Shown piece after piece: positions 50,418-62,023 of a DNA stretch of 64,000 bases. Each line of letters starts with the position of its first letter. The stretch's first letter is position 1. The stretch spans positions 7,542 to 71,541 of the forward strand of contig CAYNLA010000001.1 in the NCBI GenBank assembly GCA_964397915.1, read 5' to 3'. The notes below the pieces were generated by a model, which ran no database searches, was not told the DNA's origin, and worked only from the letters and a program-made list of their open reading frames with translations. A program made the translations under genes and the position numbers. The stretch comes from an uncultured Polaribacter sp. (GTDB lineage Bacteria > Bacteroidota > Bacteroidia > Flavobacteriales > Schleiferiaceae).

Positions 50418-51737
50418 ATGAAAAAGCTACTAGTCGCAGTATTAACCGCTGCAACTTTTATGGCAACAGCTCAGGAAGCCCCAAAGGTTACCAGTGCAAT
50501 TATTGCTCTTAGAGGCAATGAACTTGTTGAAGCTAAAGGGTTTATCGATGAAGCAACCGCAATTATCGACGGTAAGAATCAGGCTGAAATCAAAGAGAAA
50601 ATCATGTCAAAGTACCACTTTAACAAGGCGTTGATTTACTCTAAGATTGCTTCTTCACCAGATGCGGAAATCAAGGCTTTGGCTGCAGATGCAAATGAGG
50701 TTGCTGCACAAAGCTTGTTAGACTTGATTCTTTTTGAAAAGAATGCAAAAAAGCAACTGTATACGGCTGATGCACAGCGTGAATCACAAACGATCGCTTA
50801 CAATTACTTGGTAGAAGCTGGTTCTGCCTATGAAGCAGGTGATTACGAAAAAGCGTATCAAGGATATATGAGCGCATTTGAATTAAAGAAGAATGAACTT
50901 CTTGGTGAATTTGCGTATCTCGATACAAGCTTATTATTCAACGCAGGTATTATAGCGGGTTCCGCTGGTGATCTAGAATCAAGCAGTGCTGCCTTTGCAG
51001 AATGCTTAGGACTTGGTTACAAGGGAATCACGTTCACTGCAACTGATATTTTAGGAAATCCTAAGCAATACCCAAACAAAGCAGCCCTAGATAAAGCGGT
51101 TGCAGGTGGTTTAGCTACTGATCCAGTTATTGGTGAGGATGTACGTCCAAGTATTTACATCAGTTTGATCAACAATGCTAAGAAATTGGAAAAGGTTGAC
51201 GATTACAATAAATGGTTGACGGAAGCCCGTGTAGCATATCCGGAAAATAAGGATTTGCTTGATATCCAATTACAGTCTTTCCTTGATGTAAAGGATTACG
51301 ATGGCGCAATGAAGAACTTAGATGAAGCCATTGCGAAGAATCCAGATAAAGGCATTTATCATTTTGTAAAAGGAAATATCCTTCAAACAGAAATGAAAGA
51401 TCTTGATGCGGCGTTGGTCGAATACAAAGCAGCATTGGAGAAAGATCCGGAAATGAGTGATGCAATGTACATGTGTGGTCTAGTATATATCGATCGTGCA
51501 AATAAAATCACTGAGGAGATGAATAACCTGGGCTTGAATGAGACCCGTAAGTACAATGCGCTCAAAGACAAGCAAAAAGAAGTTTTCGGCGAATCACTTG
51601 AGTATTTTGAAAAGTCTTACGAAATGAAGCCTGATGATATGGATATCGTTCGTGCACTTATGGAGGTTTACCGCAAGGTTGGCGATTACCAGAAGTCTAT
51701 GGACATGAAAACCATTCTAGACGAAGCAGGAGAATAA
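50418..51737 (+). CDS. tetratricopeptide repeat protein (secreted)
   Basis: Signal peptide MKKLLVAVLTAATFMATAQ and multiple TPR-like units (GDYEKAYQGYMSAFEL, KDYDGAMKNLDEAIAKNPD, AALVEYKAALEKDPE). Confidence 0.7.
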   Translation: MKKLLVAVLTAATFMATAQEAPKVTSAIIALRGNELVEAKGFIDEATAIIDGKNQAEIKEKIMSKYHFNKALIYSKIASSPDAEIKALAADANEVAAQSLLDLILFEKNAKKQLYTADAQRESQTIAYNYLVEAGSAYEAGDYEKAYQGYMSAFELKKNELLGEFAYLDTSLLFNAGIIAGSAGDLESSSAAFAECLGLGYKGITFTATDILGNPKQYPNKAALDKAVAGGLATDPVIGEDVRPSIYISLINNAKKLEKVDDYNKWLTEARVAYPENKDLLDIQLQSFLDVKDYDGAMKNLDEAIAKNPDKGIYHFVKGNILQTEMKDLDAALVEYKAALEKDPEMSDAMYMCGLVYIDRANKITEEMNNLGLNETRKYNALKDKQKEVFGESLEYFEKSYEMKPDDMDIVRALMEVYRKVGDYQKSMDMKTILDEAGE

Positions 51738-51753
51738 ACACATTCTACGATAG

Positions 51754-51786
51754 AAAGCCCGGTTTCAGTGATTCCGGGCTTTTTTG
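51754..51786 (+). terminator. rho-independent terminator after the TPR gene
   Basis: AAAGCCCGG(51754-51762)/CCGGGCTTT(51774-51782), followed by a T-run. Confidence 0.8.
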
Positions 51787-51901
51787 GATCTTTATTCTTT
51801 TTGGCTATAATATATATTATGTTAAATAGTATTTTTATAGAACTACTCCTCTGCGTGAGTATGATAGATAATTCGATTTCATATCCCGGCCCGATCTCAA
51901 A

Positions 51902-54900
51902 TTAGGCCGATTCCGCAGATTTACGTCCACGCTTCATCGTAGTACTGGTTTTACTGTAGTTATCCTTTTCGCGAGCCATGGTATCCTCATATCGTGGATC
52001 TGGAACCATGGCGACTTTGTAGAGCGCCGAAGCTTCGATACTGAAGAAGCCAAATTCTTCCACAACGCGACCCTGTACACGATAAATACCTTTGCCACGA
52101 AACGGAAATTGTGCAGCGATGTTTGGGAAATGCACGCTGTCCAAGAATTCACCCTCTTGATCAACGAACGTGGCAAAATTCATTCGATCGCCTTTTATTG
52201 TTTTTGTGTCTTTCACCGTCACTAAATACCCGTACGAAATAACGAAGTGCCCCAGTTTATCAGGTAATTCCCTGGCCATAGTACCGTTCTCCAAAGGTTC
52301 ATCGGCCAATTCAAACGGGTCACACAGTGGAAATCCTAGGAGCTCAATTTGATCGAAGGCTTCTTCGAGACTACTTTGTTGAAGTATTGGAATCTTATAA
52401 TCGTGCGGTTGTTGATTGCCCTTAAATAAACTAGGTGGTGCTGCTATAACTTCTTTCGTATTACGGCCTCGAAGCATGTGATGGGCTTCCCAAAGTAAGG
52501 TTTGTTTTGACTTTCCAGTAAAGCGTAGGGCACCGATACGTATTAGTAATGAAATCTGCTCTATCCCAACAGGAACGCGGTCTATGAAATCTGCTAAATC
52601 CATAAAGGGTCCTCCCTCCTCGCGTTCACGCCCTATGTATACACCTATTTTTTCATCTAAACTTCGCAACAATACAAAGCCCAGGTAAATAGTGTTCCCT
52701 TGAATCACTGTAGGATAATCACCATACTGTACACAGGGTGCTTCGATCTGACCTCCATTGCGGCGAGCTTCGTGAACATAGAACTCTGTTCTGTAGAACC
52801 CGCCGAAATTATTTATCACCGCAACCATGTATTCCAAGGGATAATGTGCCTTCAAATAGAGGCTTTGATAGCTTTCTACGGCATACGATGCACTATGACC
52901 TTTAGCAAAAGCATAGCCTGCAAAACTTTCTATTTGACGCCAAATCTCACGACTCAGTTCTTCACTATATCCTCGCTCCCTACAGTTTTTAAAATATTGA
53001 TTTTCAACATTTTGAAACTCTCTTCTTGAACGAAATTTCCCTGACATTCCTCGACGCAATACATCGGCTTCTCCCAGCGAAAGCCCTGCGAAATAATGGG
53101 CGACTTTGATGACATCTTCTTGGTAGACCATCACTCCAAAGGTGTCCGGCATAATCTCAAGCATCACAGGGTGTGCATCCTTTCTACGCTCTGGATCAGT
53201 AAACCGCAGTATATACTCACGCATCATCCCACTATTACTTACTCCTGGGCGAATAATGGAACTGGCCGCGACCAGTCCTAAATAGGTATCGACCTTGAGT
53301 TTTTTAAGTAGCATTCTCATCGCCGGCGATTCCACATAGAAACATCCCATGGCCAAGCCATTTCGCAGTAAGTTTTTAATGGCCTCATCTTCTTTAAACC
53401 GCCGTAAGTCACGTATATCTATAAATGGACGATCCGGCTTGTTCTTTGCCACGATGGCTAGGGTGTCCTGAATTTTAGAAAGACCTCGCTGGCTCAGGAT
53501 ATCAAATTTATGCAGGCCAATATCTTCAGCGATGATCATATCAAACTGCACAGTTGGAAATCCTTTGGGAGGCATAAAAGTCGCGCTGTGGTAGTGCAAG
53601 CTTTGCTGTGCGATTAGTATTCCTCCTGCATGAATACTAAGGTGGCTTGGAAACCCTTGTATGTAAGTGCTATAACGAAGTACGAGATGGGATAATTGAT
53701 CGAGCGAGCCCGATGAGAAATTCCCTTTACTTAGTTTGTCTATCTCGTGCTTGGGTAAACCGAACACCTTCCCTAGTTCTCGAACCACCGATTTGTACTG
53801 AAATGTGTTGTAAGTAGCTAACAGTGAGGTATGTGGGAACCTTTTGAAGATGTACTGGGTGATATCCTCGCGATCGCGCCATGAAAAATCAAGGTCAAAA
53901 TCTGGTGGTGAGGTTCGATGCAGGTTGATAAATCGCTCGAAGTACAGGTCCAGTGCGATTGGATCAACATCCGTGATTTTAAGAAGGTAGGCGACAATGC
54001 TGTTGGCCCCGCTCCCCCGCCCCACGTAGAAATAACCACGTTTTTGAGCGTAATTCACAATATCCCAATTGATTAAGAAGTAGGACACAAAGTTCTTTTG
54101 GGCGATGAGGTCCAGTTCTTTCTCAATGCGTTCCTTGACCTTGAAGTCTGACTGTGGATAGCGGTACGGTAAGCCGTCGTAGCAAAGCTTTCTTAGAAGT
54201 TTCAGGTCCTTTTCGCGTGAACCTGAATAGGTCTGAAGATTTAGCGCGGCGTCCTCCGGTAAGGTCATTTTACAGTCCTGAAGGATTTGAGCTGCATTTC
54301 TAAGGAGTTCAGGTGCGGATGCATAGGCCTCACGAAGGGCATGATCTTCTAAATACAGGTCGTCGATGCTGCCTTGGGCTTCTTTTGATAGTTTGCTGAG
54401 CAGGGTATTTTCATCAATGGCTCGGAGCAAGCGATGCGCGTTGTGGTCCCGTTTTCCTCTGAAAGAAGCAGTTGGGAACGCGACGAGTTTGTGCTTCGCA
54501 TCTTTCCACTTTCGAAACGGTAAGGACGGAACTTCGGAGGGTGTAATGCCTATACATTCATTGTTCGCAAGATCCTTTAAGTCAATATCTGAGGAGGTTG
54601 GATAAATGATCCAAGTATTGGCAAGGGTCTTTCTATCAGGGCGCTGTGGAAATTTTACGCTGTGATGTAAATGCCAACTTAGATGGTCGTTGATTTCCCG
54701 CATCCCTTCCCAATTTCTCGCCAGCATTACATAGCATTGGCGAGTACCATTACGAAAATCAACACCTACCACAGGGCGTTTATTGGGATGATTACGCATG
54801 AGGTGCAAGACCGTCATGCACGCCGAAGTGTTGTTAATGTCTGTCAATGCCATCACAGGCCAGGGCTGGTCTTCAAAGAATTTTATCCATTCTTTAGGCG

Positions 54901-54949
54901 ACACGATTCCATAGCGCAAGCTGTAATAACTGTGCGTATTCAATAGCAT
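51902..54949 (-). CDS. dnaE2: error-prone DNA polymerase III alpha-subunit paralog (DnaE2-type)
   Basis: PHP N-terminus LNTHSYYSLRYG, Pol III alpha core (GRGSGANSIVAYLL, FDLDF) and OB domain; 1015 aa. It lies in an operon with a Y-family polymerase and an S24 repressor. Confidence 0.85.
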   Translation of the reverse strand: MLLNTHSYYSLRYGIVSPKEWIKFFEDQPWPVMALTDINNTSACMTVLHLMRNHPNKRPVVGVDFRNGTRQCYVMLARNWEGMREINDHLSWHLHHSVKFPQRPDRKTLANTWIIYPTSSDIDLKDLANNECIGITPSEVPSLPFRKWKDAKHKLVAFPTASFRGKRDHNAHRLLRAIDENTLLSKLSKEAQGSIDDLYLEDHALREAYASAPELLRNAAQILQDCKMTLPEDAALNLQTYSGSREKDLKLLRKLCYDGLPYRYPQSDFKVKERIEKELDLIAQKNFVSYFLINWDIVNYAQKRGYFYVGRGSGANSIVAYLLKITDVDPIALDLYFERFINLHRTSPPDFDLDFSWRDREDITQYIFKRFPHTSLLATYNTFQYKSVVRELGKVFGLPKHEIDKLSKGNFSSGSLDQLSHLVLRYSTYIQGFPSHLSIHAGGILIAQQSLHYHSATFMPPKGFPTVQFDMIIAEDIGLHKFDILSQRGLSKIQDTLAIVAKNKPDRPFIDIRDLRRFKEDEAIKNLLRNGLAMGCFYVESPAMRMLLKKLKVDTYLGLVAASSIIRPGVSNSGMMREYILRFTDPERRKDAHPVMLEIMPDTFGVMVYQEDVIKVAHYFAGLSLGEADVLRRGMSGKFRSRREFQNVENQYFKNCRERGYSEELSREIWRQIESFAGYAFAKGHSASYAVESYQSLYLKAHYPLEYMVAVINNFGGFYRTEFYVHEARRNGGQIEAPCVQYGDYPTVIQGNTIYLGFVLLRSLDEKIGVYIGREREEGGPFMDLADFIDRVPVGIEQISLLIRIGALRFTGKSKQTLLWEAHHMLRGRNTKEVIAAPPSLFKGNQQPHDYKIPILQQSSLEEAFDQIELLGFPLCDPFELADEPLENGTMARELPDKLGHFVISYGYLVTVKDTKTIKGDRMNFATFVDQEGEFLDSVHFPNIAAQFPFRGKGIYRVQGRVVEEFGFFSIEASALYKVAMVPDPRYEDTMAREKDNYSKTSTTMKRGRKSAESA

Positions 54950-54964
54950 TTCCCCTACCCGATT

Positions 54965-55774
54965 TTAGAATCCTAAGTCCAGTTTTCGTTGGCGTGCTTG
55001 GGTCATTCCCATGCCTTGTAAAGACAGGTGTGAATAGATCTCGTAATCATATTCCGGAACTAGACGCTCCCCTATGGGCTTCAAGAGTTCAGGACCATTA
55101 GCGCTTGGGCTTTTAATGGCTGCAGAGATGGGATACGCATTGAGTTCTTCCGAGGGGTATGGATTTAACAGGTCTGTGATTTCTGCCAGCGGAATGGATG
55201 GGTTCAACCAGATTTGCTCGTCCTCTTCTTGAAGAATTACGGGCGATCGGTGGTGATCTATGGCTGCCGTGATTTTGTTCTGAACGGTTGTAATGATGGC
55301 ATAGCTATCTATGATTTCGCCAGTATCCGGATTTACCCACGAATCGTAAATACCTGCAAAGGCAAAAGGCGCTCCATCTCTTTTGTAGACTACATAGGGT
55401 TTTGAGAGGCGTTCCTTTTGAGGTCCTTCGATAAACGCATCTGCAAGAACTAAACAGCGCTTTGAGCGAATGCTCTGACGAAATGCGGGCTTAGTCGTAA
55501 TGCCTTTTGCACCGCGATAGGCCGGATCATTCTCCGAATTGTGGTCTCCTTCAGAGCGGGCATTGAACAGATGGAACGGCTTCTTAGCCCAATACGGGGT
55601 AAAGCCGAAGCGGTAATGCTTAATGGTCCCTGGGTGCTCCTGGGTGATTACAGCGCCTAAATCACCAATGCTCGTGTTTGTATTAGGTGCATAGAGATCC
55701 GGGCGCTCTACGATAGCACTGAAGCGCTTTTCTACTGCTTTAATCTTACTGATATTGACGTATCTGCCACACAT
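54965..55774 (-). CDS. SOS response-associated peptidase (SRAP/YedK-like abasic-site processing protein)
   Basis: Catalytic N-terminus MCGRY, NARSE, HHRSPVIL; 269 aa. The C-terminus is ...QRKLDLGF. Confidence 0.88.
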   Translation of the reverse strand: MCGRYVNISKIKAVEKRFSAIVERPDLYAPNTNTSIGDLGAVITQEHPGTIKHYRFGFTPYWAKKPFHLFNARSEGDHNSENDPAYRGAKGITTKPAFRQSIRSKRCLVLADAFIEGPQKERLSKPYVVYKRDGAPFAFAGIYDSWVNPDTGEIIDSYAIITTVQNKITAAIDHHRSPVILQEEDEQIWLNPSIPLAEITDLLNPYPSEELNAYPISAAIKSPSANGPELLKPIGERLVPEYDYEIYSHLSLQGMGMTQARQRKLDLGF

Positions 55775-55803
55775 GGTACTCTTCTCTCTAAGTTAAATTC
55801 TTT

Positions 55804-57015
55804 TTACTGATGTCTGTTGGCCAATAGCGGCGGCGGTTCTCCATTGAAAGGATTGGTCCTTCCTATGGTCTTTGCGCCTAGTGAGACTGCTCGTAAAACA
55901 GAGCGATCGCCAAAGCGTTGACGAATGTGATCCATTGCACTGTAGAGTCTACTCAATTCCTCACTTTCTTCAAAGAGATTCATTTGGTAGCCACCGCCAA
56001 CCAAATGAGAACAGCGCACACCCACTAAGCGGACTAATAGCCGGCGGTCATAGAGACGCTTGAATAGTTCCTTCACCTTGGGAATGAGAATGTGGTCAGC
56101 TGCGGTATACGGAATACGCGCTTGTAGCGTATGGGTATTAAAGTCTGAATAACGGATTTTAACCGTGATGCAAGACGTGAGTTTATCGCCTCTACGCAGC
56201 TGGTAAGCCAAATTTTCCGCCATGGCTACTATGATTCCTTCGAGTTTGACCACATCAATGGTATCCTTGGCAAAGGTTCGTTCGGTAGAGATGCTCTTTC
56301 GCTCTTGATACGGTACCACAGGACTTTGATCGACACCTTGTGCTTTGTGCCAGATTACCGATCCATGTTTCCCCATCACACTTTGCATCATCTCCAAGGG
56401 CATTTCCTGAAGCGTCTGTATGCGTCGTACCCCAAGATTTCGAAGCGTTTGGTACGTCTTCTCTCCCACCATAGGTATTTTTCGCACTGATAAGGGCGCC
56501 AAAAACGGGCGTTCTAAGCCTTTTTGGATGTAAATCTTATTATTGGGTTTCGCCTCGCCGGTTGCGACTTTACTAACGGTTTTATTTCCAGAAAGGCCGA
56601 AACTGATCGGCAGTCCGGTTTCTCGAATGACCTTATCTCGAAGTTCACTAGCAAACTTGAAGTTGCCGAAGAATCGATCCATGCCTGTGAGATCCACATA
56701 GAACTCATCCACAGAGGTTTTCTCGTAGACCGGTACATCCTCTTTGATCACATCTGTGACCAGGTTGGAGTACTTGCTGTAGTTGGCCGAATTTCCACGA
56801 ATCACAATGGCTTCAGGACAAAGGTCTTTTGCCATTCGCATGGGCATGGCAGAGTGCACACCGAATTTTCGTGTTTCATAGCTGCACGCAGCCACTACTC
56901 CACGATCACCAGTTCCTCCAATAATAATAGGTTTTCCCATGAGACGCGTATCCATAAGACGCTCTACAGAAACAAAGAATGTATCTAAATCCAGATGAAG
57001 GATGGAACGGTCCAT
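55804..57015 (-). CDS. dinB: Y-family DNA polymerase IV with intact catalytic residues
   Basis: ILHLDLDTFFVSVE, AACSYETRKFGV and SVDEFYVDLT carry the catalytic D/E triad. ATG at 57015 (MDRSILHLD) preferred; the longer ORF starts at 57048. Confidence 0.88.
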   Translation of the reverse strand: MDRSILHLDLDTFFVSVERLMDTRLMGKPIIIGGTGDRGVVAACSYETRKFGVHSAMPMRMAKDLCPEAIVIRGNSANYSKYSNLVTDVIKEDVPVYEKTSVDEFYVDLTGMDRFFGNFKFASELRDKVIRETGLPISFGLSGNKTVSKVATGEAKPNNKIYIQKGLERPFLAPLSVRKIPMVGEKTYQTLRNLGVRRIQTLQEMPLEMMQSVMGKHGSVIWHKAQGVDQSPVVPYQERKSISTERTFAKDTIDVVKLEGIIVAMAENLAYQLRRGDKLTSCITVKIRYSDFNTHTLQARIPYTAADHILIPKVKELFKRLYDRRLLVRLVGVRCSHLVGGGYQMNLFEESEELSRLYSAMDHIRQRFGDRSVLRAVSLGAKTIGRTNPFNGEPPPLLANRHQ

Positions 57016-57051
57016 GAGTGGGTATTTATGAGTTTTAGGGGTGTTCACAGC

Positions 57052-57083
57052 CTATTTGAGCGGCCCTTGGGCCGCTCAAATAG
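57052..57083 (-). promoter_or_regulatory. perfect 14-bp-stem hairpin between the repressor gene and dinB (attenuator/terminator or operator)
   Basis: CTATTTGAGCGGCC(57052-57065)-CTTG-GGCCGCTCAAATAG(57070-57083). It begins 22 nt after the repressor stop. There is no U-tract on the minus strand. Confidence 0.5.
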
Positions 57084-57105
57084 CAATGCTTGTATGTATT
57101 TTTTT

Positions 57106-57888
57106 CTAGTTGTCCTTGAGCGTACTCATCTCCTTGCGCAGGTCTGCGACCATATGCATAAGCTGAGACATCTCTTGATTTGTACCCGCTGCCGGAAGCT
57201 CGAAACAAGTGTAGCCAACGGCTTTCCAAGCTTCTACAAGTCGATCAACAGGTACGGTATACGGTGCAAATTGCGGGTTATCGGATTTGAGCATTAGCTC
57301 ACCAACGTGGAGGTTGTTAATTACACGCTTGTACACAACACCTTCATCCTTAGTAATGAGTACATAACAATCGTCATTACGGATGGATTTCCAGTCTTGA
57401 ACATATTCCGTGATTACATACGAACCCGGTTTAATGGGAAGCATGCTCTCTCCACGAATTTGGAAAACGCGGTAGGTACGGTCTTGTGGAAGTTCAGGGA
57501 ACGGCATAGAGAAACGTGGCAACGCGCCTATGTAATCTGCATCTCCATACCCCGCTAAATATCCGGCAGAGGCCTTTACTGGAACCAAGGTTCCCAACTC
57601 TTTCTCATCTGTACCGTCTACAACCACAGGAAGAATGCGCAACTGTGCACCACTTACATCTGCTTTTGGAATAGATCCGCCGCCGGAAAGATCTTTGTTT
57701 ACGAAATCATCTAAGCGAACCTGGAAATACGCTGCAAGATGTTGCAAGGTGTGCAACCTAGGTTCCGCCCTACCTTCTTCATAGGCACCGATCATGGCAC
57801 GCTTTACTCCAATCTTTACCGCTAACTGCTCCTGCGTCAGCGCTTCTTTCTTTCGAAGAAACTTCAAATTGTTCTTTACGTAGTTCAT
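57106..57888 (-). CDS. CI-like HTH (XRE) + S24 peptidase repressor, non-canonical LexA type
   Basis: HTH LTQEQLAVKIGVKRAMIGAYEEG, candidate cleavage site ASAGY, catalytic Ser in RGESMLP and Lys in VVYKRV. ATG at 57888 (MNYVKNNL) preferred over 57915. Confidence 0.82.
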   Translation of the reverse strand: MNYVKNNLKFLRKKEALTQEQLAVKIGVKRAMIGAYEEGRAEPRLHTLQHLAAYFQVRLDDFVNKDLSGGGSIPKADVSGAQLRILPVVVDGTDEKELGTLVPVKASAGYLAGYGDADYIGALPRFSMPFPELPQDRTYRVFQIRGESMLPIKPGSYVITEYVQDWKSIRNDDCYVLITKDEGVVYKRVINNLHVGELMLKSDNPQFAPYTVPVDRLVEAWKAVGYTCFELPAAGTNQEMSQLMHMVADLRKEMSTLKDN

Positions 57889-57948
57889 ACAGCGTATCTT
57901 TAAAAACCAAGGCACAGCATGCCCTGTTGATTTACAATGCTAATTTAG

Positions 57949-57960
57949 TTAGAATTCTAA
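57949..57960. promoter_or_regulatory. perfect 12-bp palindrome in the divergent promoter region; candidate repressor operator
   Basis: TTAGAATTCTAA is its own reverse complement. It lies 60 nt upstream of the repressor ATG at 57888 and 33 nt upstream of the GTG at 57994. Confidence 0.35.
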
Positions 57961-57993
57961 TATTTTCATCATTCGCTCTGTTATTTTTTTGAC

Positions 57994-58530
57994 GTGGAGT
58001 TAAAAAAGGTCTTAAATACCTGTACTGTTGCTAAGGACGAGATATATGCCCGATGGATAGAAGCTGCCATTACGGAAGAAAAAGTATTGCATGCTGTTGT
58101 GGAACTAGCCTTTGGCGGTACGGAACGAGAACGCACTAGAGCTTGCTGGATTTTGCATCATATCGGGGATCGGAAGCCAAAATTGTTGAATGTATTTGTT
58201 CCACGAATGATCGAACAATTGGACCATAGCACCACAGATGCCGAGGTCCGATTCATTTTGCGCTACTTCGCTACCCAAGAACTTCCAGAGCGCGAAAGCG
58301 ATAAGGGCCTATTATTGGATTACAGTTGGAACTGCATGACCAACCAAAAGGCTGCAATCGCACCGCGGGTCTATGCTATGACTATTGCGTATAAGATGTG
58401 TGGAGAGCACCCGGAATTGGCCCAAGAATTGGCGCAAACCATTGAAAACGTTGTAGAATACGGCAGTGCAGGTATGAAAAACCGCGGAGGCAAAATCATA
58501 CAATGGCTGCGAAAAGATGGGCTACTCTAA
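57994..58530 (+). CDS. hypothetical all-alpha protein (possibly HEAT/ARM-like)
   Basis: 178-aa ORF with a GTG start, helical-repeat-looking sequence (ACWILHHIGDRKPKLLNVFVPRMIEQL). It is divergent from the S24 repressor. No family assigned. Confidence 0.45.
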   Translation: MELKKVLNTCTVAKDEIYARWIEAAITEEKVLHAVVELAFGGTERERTRACWILHHIGDRKPKLLNVFVPRMIEQLDHSTTDAEVRFILRYFATQELPERESDKGLLLDYSWNCMTNQKAAIAPRVYAMTIAYKMCGEHPELAQELAQTIENVVEYGSAGMKNRGGKIIQWLRKDGLL

Positions 58531-59748
58531 GGGGTAACCGGCCATGGCATTGCCCGCAAGAAAGCCACCAGTCCAAGCCGCTTGGAAGTTGAATCCACCA
58601 GTAATGCCATCGATATCAAGGATTTCACCGGCCAAATAGAGGTTCGGACACAGGCGACTTTGGAACGTTTTAAAATCTACTTCTTTTAGATCCACCCCTC
58701 CTGCTGTCACAAATTCTTCTTTGAAAGTCGATTTGCCGGAGACTTGGAATACTGCACTGGTCAACTCGGTGCAAAGATCCTTGAGGTGCTTGTTGCTCAA
58801 ATCGCCCCAAGTTGCTGTGTTCTTAATCCCTGCAGCCTCAACCATCGATTTCCAAAGGCGCAATGGCATTCCAAACATGGCGTGGTTGCCAATTCTTTTC
58901 TTCCCATTATCCTTCTTTTCGTCATTTAGCTCAGCTAATACGAGATCCTCATCCCTACCAACCCAATTAATCAAAATCGGGAATCGGTAGAATCGATCGC
59001 TCAACTCGCGCGCACCCCAAGCGCTCAAACGCAATACGGCCGGGCCTGAAAGTCCCCAATGTGTAATGAGTAAAGGACCGGAAGCCTCCAAGTCCGAAGC
59101 GGCAATCTGAACAGTTGCATTGGGCACACTAATGCCACTGAGCCCCTTGATACGTGGGTCTTTAATGTTGAATGTGAAGAGCGATGGCACAGGTTCAATA
59201 ATCTTATGACCTATCTTTTTGAGGTTATCCCACATCATTTTCGACGAACCGGCGGCAATCATTACCGCATCCGCCTCATAGGTCCTTCCATCATTAGTTT
59301 TTACCTCCCAAGTACCGTCATCATTGGGTTGAAATGATTTCACTCCGGAAGATGTAAGCACAGCTATTCCATTGGATTCCGCCATATCAAGCAGACAATC
59401 GATAATGGTTTGAGAAGAATCGGTCACTGGAAATACGCGGTTGTCCGATTCAATTTTCAGCTCCACACCACGGTCGGCGAACCACTCCATGGTGTCGCCT
59501 GGTTGAAATTTGTGAAACGGGCCTAAGAGTTCGCGACTGCCACGTGGATAAAAAGTAACCAGCTCTCGAGGGTCAAAACATGCATGGGTAACGTTGCAGC
59601 GACCGCCACCGCTGATCAATACCTTACCAAGGACATCCTTTCCCTTTTCCAGTAAGATGATTTCGGCTTCAGGATTTGCTTCTGCACAAGCTATGGCAGC
59701 AAAATAGCCCGCTGCACCACCACCAATAATAACCACTCGTTTTTCCAT
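58522..59748 (-). CDS. NAD(P)/FAD-dependent oxidoreductase, HI0933/BaiN-like flavoprotein
   Basis: VVIIGGGAAGYFAAIACAE...GGGRCNVTH...C-terminal LYLAGEILDIDGITGGFNFQ. Confidence 0.85.
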   Translation of the reverse strand: MEKRVVIIGGGAAGYFAAIACAEANPEAEIILLEKGKDVLGKVLISGGGRCNVTHACFDPRELVTFYPRGSRELLGPFHKFQPGDTMEWFADRGVELKIESDNRVFPVTDSSQTIIDCLLDMAESNGIAVLTSSGVKSFQPNDDGTWEVKTNDGRTYEADAVMIAAGSSKMMWDNLKKIGHKIIEPVPSLFTFNIKDPRIKGLSGISVPNATVQIAASDLEASGPLLITHWGLSGPAVLRLSAWGARELSDRFYRFPILINWVGRDEDLVLAELNDEKKDNGKKRIGNHAMFGMPLRLWKSMVEAAGIKNTATWGDLSNKHLKDLCTELTSAVFQVSGKSTFKEEFVTAGGVDLKEVDFKTFQSRLCPNLYLAGEILDIDGITGGFNFQAAWTGGFLAGNAMAGYPLE

Positions 59749-60581: not shown

Positions 60582-60920
60582 ATGGAAAATCAAGTTCAAC
60601 TCATTGGAAACTTGGGAATGGATCCCGAGTCAAAACAAATCAGTGATTCACTAAAAGCCTCGTTCACACTGGCGACCAACACGGTCTATCGCGACAGTGA
60701 TGGCAACAAAAAAACCATGACCGACTGGCACAACGTCGTCGCTTGGGGTGGTCTTGCCCAAACCATCGCCCAATACGTTAAAAAGGGTGATAAAATTGGA
60801 ATCGCAGGCCGATTAGTTACTCGTTCATACGAGGACGAAAAAGGCACCAAGAAGTACTATACAGAAGTAATTGCGAAGGATTTGCTCATGCTCGGGTCGA
60901 AGCGCAGTGAAAAAAACTGA
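60582..60920 (+). CDS. ssb: single-stranded DNA-binding protein, OB fold only, no acidic C-terminal tip
   Basis: VQLIGNLGMDPE...TDWHNVVAWGGLAQ...KGDKIGIAGRLVTRSYEDEKGTKKYYTEVIA. It ends ...GSKRSEKN without a D-D-(I/L)-P-F type tail. Confidence 0.85.
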   Translation: MENQVQLIGNLGMDPESKQISDSLKASFTLATNTVYRDSDGNKKTMTDWHNVVAWGGLAQTIAQYVKKGDKIGIAGRLVTRSYEDEKGTKKYYTEVIAKDLLMLGSKRSEKN

Positions 60921-60955: not shown

Positions 60956-62023
60956 TTATCCTTGACTTATAAGTTGTCCTTCCTCAAAAAGATAATCACC
61001 AAAAACACCCGTAACGGGCTTGTCTATTTGCAAGGGTTGCGTAAGGCCAATTGAAGTTCCATCCACTTCCTTCATTCGAGGGCGTGAAGCCAGGTCACCT
61101 AGATCATCCACGACATACAAAAGGCCCATAGCATGACCATTGACGTATTGGATGCGCTTAATAGCAACATCTACACGCATGTGTGCATACAACACATTAG
61201 TGAACACCAACTCTAACAAGCCGTTTTCATTCAGAGGAAGTGCATCATATGGCTCACTACCCCCTTCGTAACCTGCATTTAGGGTTTTTAATATGAGGTT
61301 CAAACCAAACGCACGGGCTTTCTTGCGATTGAAGTCGCCTACGGCCACTCCGCTTTCAATAAGAATGTTAGGAAGACCATTTGCCATGAGGTAATCGCCT
61401 ATGGCTGTTGGGTAAAATTCATCCGTATAGCGGCCTACACCCGCTAAATCTGTATTCATCGATACGAGTGCATTGCTCAGTCGTACCATGGTTTTCTTTC
61501 GTAACGGAGTTACAGCGCGACTTTTTTCAGCGCTTGGTACCAACAATGAAGTAAAGGCCGGAATTCCATCGGTATGGAAAATGGTACGTTGATCATGAAG
61601 GTTAAAACATAATTCTGGCTCATGCATCTTGATCCAACCGATGAGCTTTGCACTTTCAATGGTTTGAAATGCTCTGAAGTCGCGATTCAAATCTATACCG
61701 ATTCCGTTTCTTCTTGAATACCGAACGTAAGCATCAGGGTTCGCAACAGGCAATACATGCAGTGTGAATTCAGCTAAATCCAACTGTTTCTTTTGAAACA
61801 ATTCTACAAGTGCAAGGAGCATGAATATCCCAGTTGTTTCATTTCCGTGCATACCTGCCCAGATACAAATGGAACGCGGACCATTTCCCAGTTTCTTATA
61901 CAACAACGGTCGTTCCTCACTTGAGTAGCCTAGAATATCCCAATCAAAGGCTGTCCTGATCTTCTCATAGGTTATATACCACTCGTTTTGAGATAAATAA
62001 GTGCTATCGGATGTACTAAACAT
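60956..62023 (-). CDS. M14-like zinc hydrolase, succinylglutamate desuccinylase/aspartoacylase family
   Basis: Zn motif CIWAGMHGNETTG and second His region LHDQRT; 355 aa. Confidence 0.7.
   Translation of the reverse strand: MFSTSDSTYLSQNEWYITYEKIRTAFDWDILGYSSEERPLLYKKLGNGPRSICIWAGMHGNETTGIFMLLALVELFQKKQLDLAEFTLHVLPVANPDAYVRYSRRNGIGIDLNRDFRAFQTIESAKLIGWIKMHEPELCFNLHDQRTIFHTDGIPAFTSLLVPSAEKSRAVTPLRKKTMVRLSNALVSMNTDLAGVGRYTDEFYPTAIGDYLMANGLPNILIESGVAVGDFNRKKARAFGLNLILKTLNAGYEGGSEPYDALPLNENGLLELVFTNVLYAHMRVDVAIKRIQYVNGHAMGLLYVVDDLGDLASRPRMKEVDGTSIGLTQPLQIDKPVTGVFGDYLFEEGQLISQG

Follow-up and report, generated by a model that had tools for sequence, protein, structure and literature searches.

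The window analysed here is a stretch of 64,000 nucleotides from an uncultured member of the Flavobacteriales (contig CAYNLA010000001.1 of GenBank assembly GCA_964397915.1, positions 7,542 to 71,541), and the subject of this analysis is a block of four minus-strand open reading frames (ORFs) within it. These ORFs (57106-57888, 55804-57015, 54965-55774 and 51902-54949) encode, in the direction of transcription, a repressor of the non-canonical LexA type, a Y-family DNA polymerase (PolY), a SRAP protein and a Pol III alpha-subunit paralogue (DnaE2B), of 260, 403, 269 and 1015 amino acids (aa). The spacers between them are 90 nt (lexA-polY), 29 nt (polY-SRAP) and 15 nt (SRAP-dnaE2). We consider it probable (roughly 0.8) that these genes form a chromosomal operon, damage-inducible and under a LexA-type repressor, of a marine bacterium of the Flavobacteriales (Cryomorphaceae/Schleiferiaceae), and that it carries a PolY-DnaE2B-RecA mutasome together with SRAP. 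An initial annotation of the same DNA had proposed four genes with these coordinates and with gaps of 29 and 15 nt; the ORF calls confirm them, its domain calls hold in Pfam, and the motifs that it quoted were all located (ASAGY at aa 106, GESM at 146 and YKRV at 186 of the repressor; LDLDTFF at 8 and SVDEFY at 101 of PolY). Two start codons are also backed by homology, that of PolY by an alignment to the Pol IV structure 7yll that begins at residue 1 and that of the repressor by an N-terminus conserved in the ten closest relatives other than the nearest one (L002-L010, see below). The four genes are the following.

57106..57888, minus strand: non-canonical LexA, with an XRE/CI-type helix-turn-helix (HTH) domain (aa 4-66), a linker, an S24 autopeptidase domain and a C-terminal segment.
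55804..57015, minus strand: Y-family polymerase of the active type, Bacteroid-PolY2 group (DinB-like), assigned by NCBIfam, PDB and identity to exemplars.
54965..55774, minus strand: canonical SRAP protein (YedK/HMCES-type) with a 30-residue C-terminal extension, assigned by Pfam, PDB and an AlphaFold2 (AF2) model.
51902..54949, minus strand: Pol III alpha paralogue of the DnaE2B group, with an intact palm and a short degenerate PHP domain, and without the tau-binding C-terminal domain.

Conservation of the arrangement was followed in 80 loci, which came from a search with the Pol III alpha homologue against a set with one genome for each species. The loci of relatives carry L-numbers; L001-L010 are the ten closest to the window and L082 is that of Phaeocystidibacter. 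The closest locus belongs to an uncultured Cryomorphaceae metagenome-assembled genome (MAG), whose DnaE is 96% identical and whose repressor and Y-family polymerase are both 100% identical. The next-closest DnaE homologues come from Schleiferiaceae and Cryomorphaceae MAGs (~78% identity), and the more distant ones from Flavobacteriaceae, Cytophagales and Saprospiraceae (51-57%). According to profile searches of all ORFs, polY lies directly 5' of dnaE2 in 76 of the 80 loci, three of the four exceptions being contig ends; a SRAP gene is adjacent to the polymerase pair in 34 loci, and a CI-like S24 repressor gene is likewise adjacent in 34. The co-directional order repressor, PolY, SRAP, DnaE is present in all of L001-L010, and the same order is found in four more distant contigs, from Phaeocystidibacter and three other lineages. 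Since the order recurs in ten related genomes and four distant contigs, the arrangement is no chance juxtaposition. In most Flavobacteriaceae loci the repressor gene is divergent from the polymerase pair, and the SRAP-type gene is located either after dnaE (20 loci) or upstream and divergent (3 loci).

A CI-like repressor could also mark the remnant of a prophage or mobile element, and the cassette would then be mobile cargo instead of a host SOS operon. The N-terminal domain of the repressor is indeed phage-CI/Xre-like, the G+C content of the block (0.45-0.48) is slightly above that of the flanks (about 0.40-0.44), and selfish genes (Y1 transposase, PemK toxin, PF05635) are present in related operons. 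However, no phage or integrase genes are found nearby among the ORFs of the window, the genes on either side (HI0933-like, TPR, gyrA side) keep their synteny throughout the family, and the operator and the protein features match a chromosomal SOS regulator family. A prophage or mobile origin is accordingly regarded as highly improbable, and it was ruled out on the conserved flanking synteny.

The selfish genes of the related operons have diverse positions. PF05635 genes (23S rRNA intervening-sequence/Avd-like four-helix proteins) are located between successive operon genes in L083 (4909-8267), L084 and L086 (5615-5962), a Y1 transposase gene separates lexA from polY in L086, and a PemK toxin pair is inserted between polY and the SRAP gene in L085.

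The repressor matches HTH_3 (4.8e-13) and Peptidase_S24 (1.2e-6; 28.6 bits vs a gathering score of 23.3) in Pfam, and the LexA DNA-binding domain family PF01726 is not among its Pfam matches. In a profile search of the PDB its HTH matches the Xre, CylR2, CI, P22 C2 and 434 repressors. With the full-length profile all matches are swamped by the HTH, and with the C-terminal domain alone LexA and UmuD' are only marginal (E 0.35-0.6); because these PDB matches are marginal, the S24 assignment rests on Pfam and on the invariant motifs. A108-G109, S148 (G-[DE]-S-M) and K187 (Y-K-R) are invariant in alignments of 15 and 26 homologues, and by their motifs they are candidates for the cleavage bond, the nucleophile and the general base, respectively. 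The Lys aligns, weakly, with K156 of LexA ('VTVKRL'). The C-terminal extension that follows the S24 domain is conserved, with L250 and E253 invariant, and the window repressor is 36-42% identical to the divergently encoded regulators of Flavobacteriaceae.

A repressor family with a multi-helical CI-like HTH in place of the winged HTH of LexA, an S24 domain and a terminal alpha-helix was defined by Sanchez-Osuna et al. 2021 (PMC8565304). Electrophoretic mobility shift assays and mutagenesis showed that its members bind either GGA-N5-TCC or CTAA-N5-TTAG, quantitative reverse-transcription PCR showed that their regulons respond to mitomycin C, and the regulon takes in DinB-Pol III alpha operons and SRAP (COG2135) (PMC8565304). 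The CI-type HTH, the invariant A108-G109/S148/K187 and a promoter CTAA-N5-TTAG bear out the earlier assignment of the window repressor to the non-canonical LexA class of Bacteroidetes. The window resembles LexA of the CTAA-N5-TTAG cluster (PMC8565304) in its CI-like HTH, in the Ala-Gly/Ser/Lys set of its S24 domain and in the autoregulatory box. It differs from that cluster in two aspects: first, there is one operator for the whole block, upstream of lexA only; second, a conserved hairpin separates lexA from the polymerase genes. The two signals found 5' of lexA are as follows.

57940..57952, minus strand: operator, an exact CTAA-N5-TTAG (coding strand CTAACTAAATTAG) located 52-64 nt 5' of the repressor ATG.
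57935..57942, minus strand: candidate Bacteroidetes-type -7 element, TAGCATTG, with one mismatch to TAnnTTTG, overlapping the right half of the operator.

The operator at 57940-57952 is the one exact CTAA-N5-TTAG in the window, where ~1.07 would be expected by chance; in the 105-nt lexA spacer ~0.002 would be expected. The operator overlaps a second palindrome, TTAG-AATT-CTAA, and a block of ~40 nt around it, AATGATGAAAATATTAGAAnTCTAAnTAAATTAGCATTGT, is conserved in L001-L010, whose flanks diverge. Two tandem CTAA-type boxes are present 5' of lexA in L083 and L084. Sites with one mismatch to CTAA-N5-TTAG occur in the window at chance level (35 vs 29.9 expected), and none of them was found in the nearby promoters, that of the short ssb gene included. 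TAnnTTTG is the Bacteroidetes -7 promoter consensus, and TAGCATTG is on this ground a candidate for the -7 promoter element of lexA; in loci with a divergent lexA, clean TAATTTTG boxes are located at the equivalent place. Two general scans were uninformative, namely a sigma-70 scan, which does not cover Bacteroidetes promoters (5 promoter-like sites vs 11.3 expected), and a scan of the window for U-tract terminators.

The other sequence bound by the repressor family, GGA-N5-TCC, was rejected as the operator of this locus, as none of its 20 sites in the window lies in a promoter of the cassette and the nearest is inside the lexA coding sequence. The motif is over-represented window-wide (20 vs 12.0 +/- 3.4 expected, with 0 of 100 shuffles reaching 20), mostly far from the cassette, and codon usage or base composition may account for this excess. 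In other lineages of the family, the region 5' of the polymerase genes carries either tandem GGA-N5-TCC boxes or CTAC-N5-TAAG-like palindromes with a TAATTTTG -7 box. Because the types of upstream box differ, the polymerase pair appears to be wired to different branches of the repressor family by lineage. The lexA leader of the window also contains a terminator-like hairpin with a T-run between operator and ATG (57908-57926, minus strand), which is present in the window and L001 only, the segment being deleted in L002-L010.

Between lexA and polY lies a second structure.

57052..57083, minus strand: hairpin of a perfect 14-bp stem and a 4-nt loop, in the spacer from the lexA stop to the polY start, without a U-tract.

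The RNA fold of this hairpin has an energy of -28.7 kcal/mol (z = -5.4; none of 200 shuffles equalled it), its core GAGCGGC...GCCGCTC is unique in the window, and in L001-L010 the hairpin is conserved between diverging flanks. Rfam, searched over 51500-58700 at E <= 1, gave nothing, for the hairpin or otherwise. In the window clade no CTAA-type operator and no -7-like element was found in the lexA-polY spacer; in Phaeocystidibacter (L082) the lexA-polY gap is 7 nt, and lexA is co-directional with the polymerase genes in L083 to L086. The hairpin is absent from P. marisrubri (GCA_008933165.1). Co-transcription of the block is favoured because the spacer has neither an operator nor a -7 box, the gap in L082 is 7 nt and the downstream gaps are 29 and 15 nt. 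Judged from its sequence, the hairpin most likely lies inside a single transcript, as an attenuator or as an element that affects stability.

The same structure can be read as a full terminator, in which case lexA would be monocistronic and polY-SRAP-dnaE2 a separate unit, either constitutive or under another regulator. A very stable and conserved hairpin directly after the lexA stop would suit this arrangement, as would the lack of any CTAA-type operator found 5' of polY, and a GGA-N5-TCC-class box in the spacer of relatives among L002-L010 hints at a second regulator. On the other hand, the hairpin has no U-tract and no -7-like element 3' of it, the 7-nt gap in L082 and the co-directional genes in L083 to L086 speak for continuity, window and L001 are without the GGA box, and an unregulated mutagenic pair of polymerases would be unusual. 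Considering both sides, a monocistronic lexA seems distinctly improbable. The GGA-N5-TCC-class box itself (GGATTTTCTCC) is a single copy ~72 nt 5' of polY in L002, L003, L006, L007, L009 and L010; these carriers are the 78%-identity relatives, the spacers of the window and L001 have no box of the GGATTTTCTCC type, and its presence hints at input from a second class of Bacteroidetes SOS regulator.

The Y-family polymerase matches IMS (8e-43), IMS_C (7e-25) and also IMS_HHH in Pfam, and it passes the NCBIfam equivalog model for DinB, NF002677 (268 bits, cut-off 256). Its alignment with the Pol IV structure 7yll extends over 373 residues (1e-61), with D8, D10, D103 and E104 in register (HLDLDTFF/SVDEFY vs HVDMDAFF/SIDEAY). 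The identity is 68% over 393 aa to Cellulophaga algicola ADV50500 and 61% to Rufibacter AKQ45465, and 22% over 140 aa to Mycobacterium tuberculosis ImuB. No domain of the size of ImuB-C is found on PolY, as the chain ends 27 residues past a motif that resembles the RecA N-terminus (RecA-NT). To judge from these residues PolY is catalytically intact and not ImuB-like, which is what had been claimed from the sequence before; the 7yll alignment, the pass of the DinB equivalog and the 22% identity to ImuB all agree with that claim. Three features of the C-terminal part of PolY are relevant for its partners.

55972..55986, minus strand: beta-clamp-binding-type motif QMNLF, PolY aa 344-348, recognised by tail conservation.
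55888..55971, minus strand: RecA-NT motif, PolY aa 349-376, EESEELSRLYSAMDHIRQRFGDRSVLRA, recognised by DUF4113 and by the tail profile.
55807..55854, minus strand: conserved C-terminal tail NPFNGEPPxxLA[HN]R, PolY aa 388-403, which follows the RecA-NT motif.

The QxxLF-type pattern is the classical beta-clamp-binding motif. It is kept as YQ[IM]NLF in essentially all of ~60 distinct PolY tails, with Q and F invariant in the tail alignment, and the RecA-NT helix is conserved as LxLYxAMDxIRxR[FY]G across ~60 distinct orthologues. Across the PDB as a whole, the PolY tail profile matches nothing but RecA, whose residues 3-30 it covers in register, and the motif also parallels, by eye, the RecA N-termini of C. 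algicola and Rufibacter, which were taken for comparison from the supplement of a 2026 survey (PMC12926913). A RecA-NT motif was described by Timinskas and Venclovas 2019 (PMC6511836). The recA gene itself is absent from the window and from the 80 fetched loci. Within the C-terminal tail the N, F, G and P of NPFNGEPPxxLA[HN]R are invariant across 41 PolY tails, and the peptide is a candidate docking site for DnaE2B. No discussion of the NPFNGEPPxxLAHR peptide was found in the accessible portions of the PolY literature searched.

The DnaE protein matches DNA_pol3_alpha (7e-62), the finger domain (1e-32) and HHH_6 (1e-13) in Pfam, and it aligns with E. coli alpha (2e-82) so that PDFDLDF (D350/D352) and KFDIL (D483) correspond to D401/D403/D555. 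Its PHP domain is reduced: the score is 22.2 bits for the whole protein, which is sub-gathering, and 26.7 for the isolated N-terminus vs a cut-off of 26.4; N[CT]H replaces the HxH in every one of the 81 orthologues, and E. coli alpha has ~40 residues more in this region. That the PHP and thumb domains of Bacteroidetes DnaE2 are reduced was reported by Timinskas et al. 2014. The protein is 51% identical over ~400 aa to the DnaE2B exemplar ADV50501 and 42% to AKQ45466, and against DnaE2A there are short local matches only. The exemplar sequences in the 2026 supplement are cut at 400 aa, and the DnaE2B placement is one of direct identity to the exemplars, not of a tree. According to the same supplement (PMC12926913), C. 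algicola and Maribacter have a separate DnaE1. Among the NCBIfam models, the window protein passes only that of the superfamily, TIGR00594. It also has a peptide of interest in its interior.

52424..52438, minus strand: internal clamp-binding-type motif PPSLF, DnaE2B aa 838-842, in the place of E. coli alpha QADMF.

By its position this peptide is presumably the equivalent of QADMF, the clamp motif of E. coli alpha. In the 81 DnaE orthologues L841 and F842 are invariant and position 838 is Q in 50; the window clade has a residue other than Q there, which in the window is P.

The SRAP protein matches its Pfam family at 3.3e-45 over profile positions 1-213 of 214, and in the PDB it matches 2f20 (2.5e-31) as well as YedK and HMCES. 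It starts with MCGRY, and C2, N71, E116 and H175 are invariant in 60 homologues. The AF2 model has a mean predicted local distance difference test score (pLDDT) of 90, residues 1-240 being above 90. With the full catalytic set kept, the window SRAP is predicted to be a fully equipped abasic-site crosslinker. The subfamily to which it belongs is large (4971 matches at E <= 1e-20, of which the best 120 have 265-294 aa), and in all four of the genomic contexts fetched for sampled members, the cultured P. marisrubri included, the SRAP gene lies between polY and dnaE2. In L013 it is directly 5' of dnaE2, and the contig ends before any polY. The domain is followed by an extension.

54968..55054, minus strand: flexible tail of SRAP, aa 241-269, EYDYEIY..L.L[EQ]GMG.T.AR.R, then C-terminal KLDLGF.

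E241, G254, M255 and G256 of this post-domain segment are invariant in the 60 homologues, and the pLDDT falls to 50-56 over the last three 10-residue blocks. Such a low-pLDDT tail is the profile expected of a linker that bears a short linear motif. A motif of the form [QP]xx[LIM]F is present in the last 12 aa of 63 of 116 full-length subfamily members (54%), for instance as QGSLF, QQSLF, QGELF, QLSIF or PPTLF, and in 47 of these 63 it stands at the exact C-terminus; a hexapeptide variant is found in 11 more of the 116, and the window clade has KLDLGF. Among the controls the pattern occurs in 1.0% of 803 unrelated ORFs, and shuffled tails yield on average 0.5, and at most 4, matches in 116. Internal matches to the pattern in SRAPs fall within the folded core. 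Based on sequence and model, the SRAP tail is a candidate beta-clamp-binding peptide on a flexible linker, and no paper on a bacterial SRAP with a clamp motif was found in the searchable literature.

The architecture of this tail brings HMCES to mind. HMCES, a eukaryotic SRAP, has a C-terminal PIP box for PCNA and has been reported to restrain mutagenic translesion synthesis (TLS). The window-type SRAP is like HMCES in that a flexible tail with a putative sliding-clamp motif at its end comes after the domain, and in a function that is, for the window protein by prediction, tied to replication forks and TLS. Unlike in HMCES, the motif of the window subfamily is putatively of the bacterial QxxLF beta-clamp type and not a PIP box; and while HMCES restrains mutagenic TLS, the window SRAP is predicted to be co-expressed with TLS polymerases.

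At least four other SRAP-type classes, with the N-termini MCFHTS, MCYD, MCYRTR and MCYSTR, accompany polY-dnaE2 in Flavobacteriaceae, downstream of dnaE2 in loci within L042-L079 and upstream in L025, L040 and L062. They keep Cys2 and the Glu, and they may be non-crosslinking 'SRAP-like' accessory proteins of the sort described in the 2026 survey. The SRAP-type proteins encoded after dnaE in Flavobacteriaceae are 22-34% identical to the window SRAP.

How much of this system is new? The pairing of the two polymerases is known. Bacteroidetes with 'two apparently active polymerases', PolY2 and DnaE2, and without ImuA or ImuB-C were described by Timinskas and Venclovas 2019 (PMC6511836), and the 2026 survey classes the module as 'PolY-DnaE2B-RecA', with AlphaFold models in support and with C. 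algicola ADV50500 (Bacteroid-PolY2) and ADV50501 (DnaE2B) as exemplars (PMC12926913). The window is like this module in that an active-type PolY with QxxLF and RecA-NT motifs lies directly 5' of a short-PHP DnaE2, and in the lack of ImuA and ImuB-C. It is unlike the published module in that a SRAP gene is inserted between the polymerases and lexA is co-directional, not divergent or distant. With ImuA-ImuB-DnaE2 (Caulobacter, Pseudomonas, Mycobacterium), a cassette for damage-induced mutagenesis, the window shares the pairing, under predicted LexA control, of a Y-family polymerase with a non-replicative Pol III alpha paralogue; it differs in having no ImuA, in a Y-family member that is intact and without ImuB-C, and in a DnaE that is DnaE2B, not DnaE2A, with the clamp-type motif kept. 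Thus the departure from known cassettes that the initial annotation saw in an active PolY next to DnaE2 had been published in 2019 and classified in 2026. Nor does its placing of SRAP in the slot of ImuA hold, since the RecA-NT-type motif of PolY makes RecA the predicted substitute for ImuA, and the position of SRAP varies between lineages.

The association with SRAP has a history as well. Aravind, Anand & Iyer 2013 (PMC3765255) describe SRAP in DinB operons, sometimes with LexA and 'a DnaE paralog', and read SRAP as an autopeptidase, not as an abasic-site crosslinker. The Bacteroidetes strings of their supplement include, for Imtechella, DinB->DnaE2->SRAP with UmuD divergent; for F. johnsoniae, DinB->DnaE2->SRAP; and for Nonlabens, SRAP->?->DinB->DnaE2->SplB, with LexA divergent. 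The Bacteroidetes linkage of SRAP to DinB, DnaE2 and a regulator of the S24 type is thus catalogued there, whereas the order DinB->SRAP->DnaE2 and the clamp tail were not found in the accessible part of that catalogue. Because the regulator, the polymerase pair and the SRAP link have all been published, the cassette is a gene-order variant of a known system. The searchable literature yielded no mention of three details: a SRAP gene between polY and dnaE2, the full catalytic set of such a SRAP, and its usual QxxLF tail.

The features described above can be combined into the following scheme. The non-canonical LexA would bind the single CTAA-N5-TTAG operator, which overlaps its own promoter. DNA damage would lead to RecA-stimulated self-cleavage at A108-G109, as expected from the family, and thereby to derepression, and transcription could then proceed from lexA through the hairpin into polY-SRAP-dnaE2, with the hairpin most likely acting as an attenuator that holds polymerase levels under those of the repressor. 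PolY, predicted to be active, and DnaE2B, with an apparently active palm and dead PHP, would assemble a mutasome of the PolY-DnaE2B-RecA type, in which the RecA-NT motif of PolY would recruit RecA into the place held by ImuA in ImuA-ImuB-DnaE2. The clamp-type peptides of PolY, SRAP and DnaE2B are most simply read as a means of co-delivery to the beta clamp at stalled forks, where SRAP would guard abasic sites in single-stranded DNA from breakage and the polymerases would insert and extend past lesions. The sequences themselves show who the genes are, their catalytic residues, the operator, the conserved gene order and the conservation of the motifs; from these we infer the induction of the block, its co-transcription, the binding of clamp and RecA, and the coupling of SRAP to bypass. 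A coupled shield-and-bypass pathway for abasic sites, as first put forward in the initial annotation, is a reasonable hypothesis.

Several observations weigh against the damage-inducible operon with its PolY-DnaE2B-RecA mutasome and SRAP. The DnaE protein stays below the NCBIfam cut-offs of both DnaE1 (493 vs 1002 bits) and DnaE2 (NF004225, 406 vs 939 bits). Because its score is so far below the cut-off of the error-prone polymerase, it is not a canonical ImuC, and the name dnaE2 given to the gene earlier is acceptable for a DnaE2-type gene of the DnaE2B group (51% to ADV50501) but not for a canonical DnaE2/ImuC (406 vs 939 bits). The RecA-NT matches on PolY are each weak alone, but they agree: DUF4113 is matched at E = 0.033, sub-gathering, on exactly aa 349-376, and the tail-profile value of E = 3e-5 is inflated by tandem-fused RecA chains, single RecA copies giving ~5 bits. 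The clamp peptides of the window clade are non-consensus, KLDLGF in SRAP and PPSLF in DnaE2, and 35 of the 116 SRAP relatives have no terminal motif. The hairpin, with its -28.7 kcal/mol, may act as a full terminator, and polY-SRAP-dnaE2 would then have no regulated promoter that can be recognised. Finally, 46 of the 80 loci have no SRAP adjacent to the polymerase pair, and the adjacent SRAP-type classes of Flavobacteriaceae appear, in a MAFFT alignment, to be without the catalytic Asn and His. Because of the non-adjacent loci and the divergence of the adjacent classes, an obligatory SRAP mechanism shared by all these systems is not implied.

The last points lead to the question of whether SRAP belongs to the same pathway as the polymerases or merely to the same regulon. 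SRAP may hitch-hike on the LexA promoter and protect abasic sites independently of PolY and DnaE2B, and its clamp motif, if real, would then target forks in general. That SRAP takes three positions relative to the pair and is non-adjacent in those 46 loci fits a shared regulon, as does the involvement of several unrelated SRAP classes. Operons of UmuDC, Ku/ligase and PolB2 likewise have SRAP genes with them (PMC3765255; PMC11791011), and SRAP is not among the listed partners of the DnaE2B-PolY-RecA module in the 2026 survey (PMC12926913). On the other hand, the SRAP subfamily of the window lies between polY and dnaE2 in the four look-ups and in the ten loci of the window clade, and 5' of dnaE2 in L013; the gaps around it are just 15-29 nt; and repeated, independent recruitment of SRAP-type proteins to the polymerase pair argues for selection on the combination. 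A mere shared regulon is consequently a serious competitor, to which we give appreciable though less than even weight.

SRAP could also be a structural or regulatory subunit of the mutasome, like UmuD' or ImuA, which binds PolY and/or DnaE2B through EYDYEIY...GMG and gates their activity, crosslinking being secondary. The location of its gene between two polymerase genes and the conserved post-domain segment, with E241, G254, M255 and G256 invariant, would fit such a role, and the 2026 survey models 'UmuC-SRAP-like-RecA' complexes with SRAP-like proteins as putative PolY-binding regulatory subunits (PMC12926913). However, the complete crosslinker set C2, N71, E116 and H175 is invariant in 60 relatives, and the published PolY-DnaE2B-RecA models score well without SRAP (PMC12926913), so that a subunit role is considered unlikely. 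A bolder extension of the damage-inducible operon is that the SRAP subfamily forms a clamp-tethered fourth component of the mutasome in a large Bacteroidota lineage, with shielding and bypass handed over on one clamp and the hairpin setting the stoichiometry of repressor and enzymes. The QxxLF tail would then be, by analogy, an independently arisen bacterial counterpart of the PIP box of HMCES. This extension is tentative and, on balance, doubtful.

The locus extends the published regulator, the PolY/DnaE2 pairing and the SRAP association to an uncultured family of marine Flavobacteriales, with a variant of the gene order. Its main possible value lies in a SRAP subfamily that is embedded in such operons and has a clamp-type tail, next to two polymerases that both have clamp motifs; this is modest but testable. 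The coordination of SRAP/HMCES crosslinks with translesion synthesis is still unsettled in the field, and one compact operon with shield, inserter, extender and regulator offers a tractable system for the hand-off, especially considering that the cultured Phaeocystidibacter marisrubri has the same operon.

At the 3' end of the block, dnaE2 is convergent with a TPR gene, and a further repeat lies between them.

51754..51782, no strand assigned: inverted repeat AAAGCCCGG...CCGGGCTTT, in the interval that separates dnaE2 from the convergent TPR gene.

Its 14-nt arms are 86% complementary, with an A-run and a T-run on either side, which makes it a candidate bidirectional terminator at the 3' end of the operon. 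In some relatives the operon is longer by a radical-SAM gene, probably SplB-like, which abuts dnaE2 at its 3' end or overlaps it there (L082 10877-11911, L083 11375-12706, L086 10001-11062); the window lacks this gene and has the convergent TPR gene instead.

On the other side, an ORF of 178 aa (57994-58530, plus strand) is divergent from lexA and shares the 105-nt operator region with it, so that it may be SOS-co-regulated. L001-L003, L006, L007 and L009 have it; L010 and L082 do not. The protein matches no family of Pfam or NCBIfam, and its homologues form only 14 clusters among 5.8 billion proteins. The AF2 model (pLDDT 95) is an all-helical HEAT/ARM-like repeat with no specific neighbour in the PDB (best E 0.01). 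An identity as an AlkD-like glycosylase was considered and rejected, the HEAT-like model having no specific structural neighbour and the protein no family.

Farther upstream, a short SSB paralogue of 112 aa (60582-60920, plus strand) consists of the OB domain only and is without the acidic C-terminal tail. No CTAA-N5-TTAG was found upstream of it. It adjoins an M14-type peptidase gene (60956-62023, minus strand), 2.7 kb from the cassette, and the pair of SSB paralogue and M14-type peptidase is syntenic in Phaeocystidibacter (L082).

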